In this document: positions 4,382 through 4,635 of the stretch, one piece after another | Position numbering within the stretch: position 1 is the first letter of the stretch | How the letters are laid out: each line of letters opens with the position of its first letter | Source: a virus | Taxonomy: Duplodnaviria > Heunggongvirae > Uroviricota > Caudoviricetes | IMG/VR virus record: IMGVR_UViG_2548876940_000001 | Coordinates: 1-5,319 of that record | Direction: 5' to 3' (one strand) | Length of the DNA stretch: 5,319 bases | Made by a program: the position numbers and the translations under genes | Notes under the pieces: generated by a model | What the model was told of the DNA's origin: nothing | What the model saw: only the letters and a program-made list of their open reading frames with translations | The model's database searches: none

Positions 4382-4414
4382 AGGCCTGCTGGTAATCGCA
4401 GGCCTTTTTATTTG
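4382..4414 (+). terminator. Rho-independent terminator after ren (tR2-like position)
   Basis: 8-bp stem AGGCCTGC / GCAGGCCT (4382..4389 and 4398..4405) with loop TGGTAATC, followed by TTTTTATTT (4406..4414). Confidence 0.65.
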
Positions 4415-4428
4415 GGGGAGAGTAAATC

Positions 4429-4635
4429 GTGGTTGAGTTGATTTTTTCTGCATTGAGGATTCTCGGTGCTATGTGGATGGTGGCGACGTTCATTGTGGTT
4501 GCCAGCAGTTTTGTCCGGCTGGTAGGCGAAGGTAAAGACCTGGTTGGTGTGCTTTTCGGTAGCATTTTCCTGTGGGTGATTATCGGTGTTGCGCCTGTCG
4601 CTGTAGCAAAAATGGCGTGGCGTTTTGTGAGTTGA
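4429..4635 (+). CDS. Small hypothetical membrane protein (68 aa, two predicted transmembrane helices)
   Basis: GTG start at 4429 with GGGGGAG (4414..4420) about 8 nt upstream. Two hydrophobic stretches (LIFSALRILGAMWMVATFIVVASSFV and LVGVLFGSIFLWVIIGVAPVAVA) separated by a short charged loop (GEGKD). Stop at 4633..4635 abuts the ninB ribosome-binding site. No family recognised. Confidence 0.45.
   Translation: MVELIFSALRILGAMWMVATFIVVASSFVRLVGEGKDLVGVLFGSIFLWVIIGVAPVAVAKMAWRFVS

Follow-up and report, generated by a model that had tools for sequence, protein, structure and literature searches.

In phage lambda, ren and ninB are separated by a spacer of 73 bp (ren end 40570, ninB start 40644), whose sequence runs ...AAAAGATGACCATCTACATTACTGAGCTAATAACAGGCCTGCTGGTAATCGCAGGCCTTTTTATTTGGGGGAGAGGGAAGTCATG(ninB) and carries the terminator tR2. 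The annotated product of this junction is NinA, a hydrophobic protein of 26–27 aa encoded at the end of the replication genes in P22, HK620, SPN9CC and lambda. The literature uses ninA solely for a mini-ORF lying over the hairpin, and the ninA annotated in HK620, SPN9CC and HK630 is an 84-bp ORF that begins at the ATGA with which the helicase gene ends and runs across this hairpin. A second small gene of the same intergenic neighbourhood belongs to the family phrog_1165, which is annotated as of unknown function and whose members have been recorded as HK75_43, HK022_58, mEp213_058, SPN9CC_0027 and orf70 of Stx2 phage 86. Small membrane proteins of several kinds are known from phages and their hosts: T4 Imm, P22 SieA and HK97 gp15 block genome injection by other phages; class II holins of the S21 pinholin type are proteins of ~70 aa with two transmembrane helices; and bacterial small membrane proteins of the AcrZ and MgtS type bind and modulate other membrane proteins.

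Here we analyse a stretch of 5,319 nucleotides of phage DNA (hereafter the window), whose gene content, according to its ORF list and to PHROG and Pfam profile matches, is that of a lambdoid early-right operon. As a whole, the window is most like Stx1a-converting phages and phage PA28 (77% coverage, ~95% identity), and the DNA of its ren–ninB interval is 100% identical to that of prophages in E. coli E2865 and 06_3235. A preliminary description of the window had set about 286 bp between ren and ninB against a short spacer in lambda; the interval indeed measures 286 bp (4357–4642, between the ren end at 4356 and the ninB ATG at 4643) as against the 73 bp of lambda. It contains a 68-codon frame, here called ORF68. 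The features to which we refer are:

1118–1768, minus strand: LexA/S24-type repressor gene
1848–2033: cro
2143–2439: cII
2472–3371: O
3368–4069: P
4066–4356: ren
4353–4436, plus strand: 27-aa hydrophobic mini-ORF, MTIYITELITGLLVIAGLFIWGRVNRG, read from the sequence; the 'NinA' of the P22, HK620, SPN9CC and HK630 annotations
4382–4413, plus strand: predicted intrinsic terminator with the lambda tR2 sequence, a hairpin and then a T-run
4414–4422, plus strand: Shine-Dalgarno region, GGGGGAGAG, with the core GGGGGAG at 4414–4420
4429–4635, plus strand: coding sequence of ORF68, 68 aa, GTG start, TGA stop, phrog_1165 member
4459–4515, plus strand: predicted transmembrane helix 1, codons 11–29, ILGAMWMVATFIVVASSFV, with K/R10 before it and W16 and F21 within it
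4516–4539, plus strand: turn, codons 30–37, RLVGEGKD
4540–4632, plus strand: predicted transmembrane helix 2 (38–60) and the 8-residue tail, codons 38–68
4634–4645, plus strand: ninB ribosome-binding site GAGG (4634–4637) and ninB ATG (4643)
4643–5089: ninB (Pfam NinB, E = 1.7e-48)
5086 onward: start of a Dam-type methyltransferase gene (Pfam Dam, E = 1.3e-27)

The leader behind ren and the family of ORF68

A terminator scan found a terminator-like stem-loop at 4382–4405 (8-bp stem with 6 GC pairs, 8-nt loop; centroid energy of the hairpin −15.7 kcal/mol) with the T-run TTTTATTT directly 3' of it at 4406–4413, and hairpin and T-run match the lambda ren–ninB sequence base for base. The counterpart of this element is labelled 'terminator tR2' in HK620 and 'terminator' in HK75; what had been described as a tR2-like terminator is therefore identical to the tR2 sequence itself. 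Lambda and the window have in common the ren stop with its ATGA, the hairpin, the T-run and GGGGGAG. In lambda this leader goes straight into the ninB ATG and GGGGGAG serves ninB, whereas in the window the same leader precedes ORF68, so that ORF68 is, in the literal sense, an insertion relative to lambda. The GTG-initiated frame of 68 aa claimed to lie behind GGGGGAG was found at 4429–4635, with 8 nt between the core and the GTG, and this Shine-Dalgarno element is kept in every leader-bearing phage examined. A crude consensus scan of 3900–5319 returned no sigma-70-like site on either strand, and no Rfam family matched in or near the ren–ninB interval, the window's single, sub-threshold Rfam match being located at 1962–2026.

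The stop codon of ORF68 abuts the ninB ribosome-binding site, as had also been noted: the TGA at 4633–4635 overlaps the GAGG at 4634–4637, which sits 5 nt 5' of the ninB ATG, an arrangement typical of translational coupling. At the 5' end, the ATG of the mini-ORF overlaps the ren stop (ATGA), the tR2 hairpin falls inside the mini-ORF, and its TGA (4434–4436) falls 3 nt after the ORF68 GTG, giving an 8-nt overlap between two different reading frames. The succession of overlaps (ren–ATGA–mini-ORF, mini-ORF–TGA/GTG and TGA/GAGG–ninB) is consistent with the translationally coupled gene packing known for nin regions (PMC8022706). An identity of ORF68 with NinA was considered and rejected: ORF68 starts at 4429 in another frame, and the annotated NinA is the 27-aa ORF that spans the hairpin. 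ORF68 is annotated apart from NinA in SPN9CC (as SPN9CC_0027) and is unannotated in HK620, and HK022 has the hairpin and ORF68 and lacks the mini-ORF because its hairpin directly follows the stop of an unrelated gene. One database match table displays the label 'NinA' over the ORF68 match; the label belongs to the mini-ORF.

ORF68 is not a new gene. Its residues 1–68 match phrog_1165 over positions 1–68 of 68 (E = 7.5e-37), and the corresponding coding sequence in the 100% DNA-identical region of E. coli E2865, to which PGAP assigns identical start and stop positions, is catalogued in RefSeq as WP_000229807.1, 'hypothetical protein'. Family, start, stop and position behind tR2 are the same and nothing differs; ORF68 is an already catalogued hypothetical protein and an ordinary instance of its family. 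Both this wide annotation and the second, 27-aa ORF had been missed in the preliminary description. Beyond the family itself, profile searches with ORF68 matched no Pfam or NCBIfam model, PADLOC gave 0 matches at E ≤ 10, the PHROG matches were to unknown-function families only, and no holin, exclusion, toxin or defence family was matched in PHROG, Pfam, NCBIfam or PADLOC. Literature searches that covered small membrane proteins, the nin region with ninA, and the family's accession numbers yielded nothing on ORF68, and thus no experimental data on its translation, localisation or phenotype.

An exhaustive search of 1.84 billion cluster representatives with a profile gave only 25 matches, all of them small proteins of the ORF68 family. 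The distant relatives among them have 63–85 aa (mostly 63–66) and 27–36% identity, and share length, hydrophobic pattern and motifs with ORF68; four of them (P0162, P0164, P0169 and P0173) also match phrog_1165. The family is typified by K10, G-x-x-W16-M and F21 in helix 1, by V32-N-x-G35-x-D37-P in the turn (also given as V-N/G-x-G-x-D-P) and by W49..I-G53..P56-V57...K61-(F/M)-A-W64-x-F66 in helix 2 and the tail. One relative lies in the order cI-cro-cII-repO-DnaC-like, two small ORFs, relative, then NinX, NinF and YbcO; another directly overlaps the end of a DnaB helicase gene; and in a prophage of Izhakiella capsodis (Erwiniaceae) a DnaB helicase gene is followed, through an ATGA overlap, by a 64-aa relative, two small ORFs and NinB. 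Thus, in the window, in HK75, HK620, HK022, mEp213 and SPN9CC, and in the metagenomic and Izhakiella relatives, the gene heads a nin-like region directly after the replication genes. These contexts indicate that the family is narrow, positionally conserved and independent of the tR2 leader. The hosts seen here are Escherichia, Salmonella and one Erwiniaceae species, a taxonomic range that is under-sampled, the genome-collection scan having used a narrow alignment and returned only Izhakiella. YlcH, a small ORF just upstream of ybcN in the DLP12 prophage of E. coli K-12, was considered as a relation and proved unrelated in sequence.

Coding status, alleles and occupancy of the position behind tR2

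With tblastn, ORF68 was detected in 107 phage records, as compared with 396 that match any part of a 287-nt query of the interval, mostly via the leader. These copies fall into three alleles, all of 68 codons with zero indels. Allele A is found in the window, HK75, HK629/630, HK022, mEpX1, mEp235 and many Stx2a phages (90–99% identity); allele B in HK620, HK633, mEp213, H-19B and HZ41 (about 55–58% identity); and allele C in Salmonella P22-like phages, e.g., SPN9CC and Emek (~46% identity), with an ATG start at the position of the GTG elsewhere.

Judged by its evolutionary conservation, ORF68 is a genuine gene. The mere openness of 68 codons would carry little weight, given that two antisense frames are likewise open over this stretch (4374–4676, 100 aa; 4408–4725, 105 aa); it is as a coding frame conserved between homologues that ORF68 cannot be put down to chance. 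Of the possible frames, +1 alone stays open throughout the intact homologues, and amino-acid identity is highest in it; dN/dS between allele A of the window and alleles B and C is 0.21–0.31 with zero indels. The uncorrected inter-allele pN/pS is 0.5 in this frame, 0.95–1.2 in the other sense frames (+2 and +3) and, in the antisense frames, 0.9, 0.6 (the frame sharing wobble positions) and 1.1–1.25. In the same comparison of A with B and C, pN is 0.30–0.35, whereas synonymous sites are saturated, with a pS of 0.6–0.7 overall and ~0.8 in codons 2–47; the differences peak at codon position 3 (e.g., 23/19/35 across the three positions); and nucleotide identity is 58–63% overall and only ~50% in the centre. 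Among the matches listed, 113 of 120 cluster representatives are exactly 68 aa long. The frame suspected of coding is thus conserved without indels in three alleles at 46–55% identity, and the relatives at 27–36% identity keep both the frame and the position after the replication genes. As for the antisense ORFs, frame −2 is not open throughout in alleles B and C, and frame −1 is open, but only 30–39% conserved with a pN/pS of ~0.9; hence, both were rejected as true genes and are by-products. Constraint on ORF68 is moderate, not strong: within allele A, 21 codons are amino-acid-variable as against 11 with synonymous-only variation, mostly through hydrophobic swaps, so within-allele polymorphism is weakly constrained.

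An alternative by which ORF68 is not a gene, its frame having stayed open as a side effect of an element that acts at the nucleotide level (for example, an extended terminator, a linker for recombination or an RNA), appears to us extremely improbable. It could appeal to the far higher nucleotide conservation of the leader and the last 60 nt relative to the centre, to the low pS of codons 48–68 (0.19–0.27 between alleles A and B, versus 0.82 for codons 2–47), to the openness of the two antisense frames and to the nonsense and frameshift mutations of some copies. However, the step in pS marks an intragenic mosaic joint, and this recombination joint (P0147 is an A/B recombinant), together with conservation at the protein level, accounts for the conserved 3' end. 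Moreover, the centre, although only ~50% identical in nucleotides, is unchanged in length, frame and hydrophobic pattern; frame +1 is the only one with a low pN/pS; the relatives at 27–36% identity keep the motifs without the leader; and the interval and its surroundings have no Rfam match.

The 40-nt leader is present in at least 120 IMG/VR loci, of which 111 copies could be classified by the gene that follows. Among the matches listed, this gene is NinB in 63 of the 111 copies, a member of the ORF68 family in 22 (21 intact), i.e., about one fifth, with two disrupted copies in addition, and something else in ~24. These other occupants include phrog_343 proteins, a 60-aa protein, a 108-aa phrog_5903 protein with an N-terminal transmembrane segment and a 93-aa DUF4752 protein whose N-terminal stretch is hydrophobic. 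In the loci with ORF68, either ren or a gene for a DnaB-type helicase precedes it, and it is followed at +7 nt by ninB in 7 loci and at +17 nt by a phrog_343 gene in 12 loci; since neighbours on both sides vary, ORF68 constitutes an independent cargo unit. The H-19B copy has a TGA at codon 15, a truncation found identically in one IMG/VR locus, and two further IMG/VR loci have frameshifted copies; the existence of such nonsense and frameshift alleles indicates that the gene is dispensable. Together, these observations define ORF68 as an optional gene that is occasionally inactivated. Of 5,426 complete E. coli genomes, 539 have a match to at least 80% of the length of the interval, ORF68 included.

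Predicted structure and topology

The claim of two hydrophobic helices is borne out by both hydropathy and structure prediction. ORF68 has a GRAVY of 1.53 and two uncharged stretches, residues 11–29 and 38–60, with mean Kyte-Doolittle values of 2.15 and 2.46, and AlphaFold, run on an alignment of 21 sequences, predicts a helical hairpin with helices at 2–33 and 38–67 (mean pLDDT 91.6, pTM 0.70). The predictions support a two-helix membrane hairpin with helices of at least 19 residues and a short turn. The structural reading of the preliminary description, in which a small membrane protein with two helices is encoded between ninB and the terminator behind ren, as an insertion with respect to lambda, is accordingly supported.

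The most conserved part of the family is codons 38–68 (W49, G53, P56, V57, K61, W64 and F66). Conservation in both helices has a periodicity of 90–100 degrees, which points to one conserved face per helix, and the conserved charges are K/R10 and K61 at the ends and D37 in the turn. By the positive-inside rule, applied by hand along with hydropathy, the conserved end lysines and the acidic turn suggest an N-in/C-in topology in the inner membrane with a periplasmic turn. Foldseek searches of the PDB and BFVD with the model gave generic hairpins only (E > 0.8), and a profile search of PDB sequences gave no match to ORF68.

Candidate roles and comparison with known systems

The reading that we favour, with moderate confidence, is that ORF68 is a genuine accessory gene of the nin operon, encoding a delayed-early, dispensable inner-membrane hairpin that binds another membrane protein. 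ORF68 takes the first position behind tR2 and uses the same Shine-Dalgarno element as ninB of lambda, and ribosomes could load for it at the GGGGGAG site. With no promoter-like site nearby and tR2 immediately upstream, its expression would need antitermination: the product would appear only with antiterminated pR transcription, as that of a delayed-early, lytic-phase gene and not of a lysogenic-conversion gene. The protein would then act inside the membrane, binding and modulating another inner-membrane protein of the host or the phage, since ~10 N-terminal and 8 C-terminal residues would be all that is exposed, and it is specific Trp, Gly, Pro and Lys positions, not simply a hydrophobic character, that are conserved. 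The conserved helix faces may, however, pack on each other rather than on a partner. As a tentative and unlikely proposal, phrog_1165 could represent a new class of intramembrane regulators, made only after tR2 antitermination, that bind a specific host inner-membrane complex and alter superinfection, the lysis-lysogeny choice or host physiology in the course of lytic growth, with the deeply diverged A, B and C alleles as different specificities. A DNA-entry transporter and the FtsH/HflKC protease that controls cII are example targets of such a regulator, and its effects, if the proposal were true, would extend to the Shiga-toxin phages.

The preliminary description had offered exclusion, toxin and membrane-depolarising functions as possibilities. 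As a special case of such a binder, ORF68 might be a superinfection-exclusion protein, an inner-membrane hairpin that stops genome injection by other phages. This would fit a predicted small inner-membrane protein in a temperate phage, the small membrane proteins among the other occupants of the post-tR2 slot, and the nature of ORF68 as optional cargo with deeply diverged alleles between near-identical flanks, as is typical of specificity-determining phage genes. However, deep allelic divergence is usual for most lambdoid genes, no exclusion or defence family of PHROG, Pfam, NCBIfam or PADLOC was matched, and a gene behind tR2 without a nearby promoter-like site is probably silent in lysogens, where the classical Sie proteins act, so we consider this role unlikely. 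An oligomeric pore, with ORF68 as a membrane permeabiliser or depolariser of the holin, pinholin or type-I-toxin kind, is a distinctly improbable role. A protein of 68 aa with two transmembrane segments does have the size and layout of a class II holin, and both helices contain small residues (G13, G44 and G53). Nevertheless, a comparison by hhalign with the class II holin that the near-identical E2865 prophage encodes gave a probability of 0.8%; there is no Pfam or PHROG holin match at E ≤ 1; ORF68 belongs to the early operon and lies far from the lysis genes, a holin and an endolysin being already encoded by the E2865 prophage in a separate holin-RrrD-RzpD cassette ~8 kb downstream of ORF68; and in place of a charged C-terminal domain there is a tail of 8 residues (KMAWRFVS), two of them basic. 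On these four tests, i.e., family match, hhalign, genomic location and charged tail, the class II holin was rejected; the dual-start motif of holins of the S21 pinholin type is also absent from ORF68. The crude scan revealed neither an antisense promoter nor an antitoxin-like feature, the lack of sigma-70-like sites at 3900–5319 and of Rfam matches in the interval likewise providing no type I toxin-antitoxin signature. Further, the conservation of Trp, Pro and Lys positions points to a defined fold or interface, and a pore formed early would presumably harm the phage's own replication.

A role as a membrane tether that holds the phage's replication proteins at the inner membrane, or modulates them there, could be read from the constant location of the gene directly behind the replication genes (ren, lambda P or a DnaB-type helicase) and from the ATGA overlap of its start with the helicase stop in distant relatives. 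Conserved lambdoid gene order explains this position, and lambda, like most phages that share these replication modules and the leader, lacks the gene; its alleles do not track the type of replication module, and barely 18 residues lie outside the membrane. A tether is, in our view, very improbable.

The phrog_1165 gene is common, being carried by many Stx2a-converting phages, HK022, HK75 and Salmonella P22-like phages, and it has no name. The useful outcomes of the present analysis are its coding status, as established by conservation, its distinction from 'NinA', the recognition that the position behind tR2 is a polymorphic slot for cargo, and a set of family motifs. Knowledge of its role would fill a blank in the phage operon that has been studied best, and a host membrane target might come to light. 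In relation to the exclusion proteins and to AcrZ and MgtS, ORF68 showed no homology in any library searched and apparently lacks a promoter of its own. Nonetheless, T4 Imm, P22 SieA, HK97 gp15 and proteins of the AcrZ/MgtS type are small, almost wholly membrane-embedded binders of other membrane proteins, and it is these that furnish the working analogy for ORF68.

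Occupants of the site behind tR2

The site directly behind the intrinsic terminator tR2 is a polymorphic cargo slot. We surveyed the IMG/VR loci L017-L136 at the position right after the 40-nt leader, comprising tR2 and the Shine-Dalgarno stretch, and recorded the first gene among the matches listed: NinB follows directly in 63 cases, whereas a member of the ORF68 family (ORF68 being the 68-codon gene for a two-helix membrane protein in the window) is found in 22, with 2 more in disrupted form. The rest carry other genes, and the following occupants were encountered in the IMG/VR loci listed:

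phrog_343 proteins, 92-105 aa
phrog_5903 protein, 108 aa, with a TM segment at the N-terminus
DUF4752 protein, 93 aa, with a hydrophobic stretch at the N-terminus
60-aa protein

The occurrence of inactivated copies indicates that ORF68 is dispensable: the copy in phage H-19B (L006 1495-1701) has an in-frame TGA at codon 15, which is apparently also present in that of a related Stx1a phage, and the metagenomic or viral IMG/VR copies in L030, L062 and L127 show that same nonsense mutation or frameshifts.

The gene itself is also mosaic, with an intragenic joint at window 4570-4635 (codons 48-68). Allele A (the window, HK75, HK022) and allele B (HK620, H-19B) share 83-97% nucleotide identity in the last third of the gene, with uncorrected synonymous differences (pS) of 0.19-0.27; over the rest of the gene, the identity is about 50% and the pS 0.82. 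Further, the database protein P0147 is a recombinant, with an N-terminal part from allele A and a C-terminal part from allele B.

Additional reading frames over tR2 and ORF68

Three further frames overlap this region:

4353-4436, plus strand: putative hydrophobic mini-ORF of 27 aa, termed 'NinA' in P22 and HK620 annotations, read across the tR2 hairpin
4374-4676, minus strand: antisense ORF over ORF68, 100 aa
4408-4725, minus strand: antisense ORF over ORF68, 105 aa

The start of the mini-ORF shares an ATGA with the ren stop and its stop overlaps the GTG of ORF68. The same mini-ORF is present in lambda, where its end forms an ATGA with ninB, but not in HK022. That its nucleotide sequence is conserved at near 100% follows from the tR2 terminator being encoded there. 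As for the antisense frames, other alleles break one of them, and the second stays open but with poor conservation (pN/pS about 0.9); we accordingly rejected both as by-products of sense-strand codon composition.

The N gene and antitermination

about 517-833, minus strand: N gene region, of which 696-833 is considered here

The window N gene encodes the phage-21-like arginine-rich motif GTAKSRYKARRAELIAERR. The gene is 13 bp shorter than in the otherwise near-identical prophage of E. coli E2865, whose intact N has 101 aa, and the resulting frameshift truncates the protein shortly past the motif. This loss is either a real mutation or an assembly error; if real, antitermination at tR1 and tR2 would be poor in the window prophage, and expression of ORF68 and the nin genes accordingly weak.

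ninB and the downstream nin region

4659-4675 and 4686-4698, minus strand, within the ninB 5' end: two hairpins resembling terminators, each with a T-rich tail
5086-5319, plus strand: Dam-type N6-adenine methyltransferase after ninB (Pfam Dam, E = 1.3e-27)

By chance, 1.1 +/- 1.1 terminator-like sites would be expected in the region, which holds 3 altogether, so the two minus-strand hairpins may be chance matches. The methyltransferase stands where lambda has ninC, and the window ninB allele is likewise unlike that of lambda; both are further cases of nin-region mosaicism.
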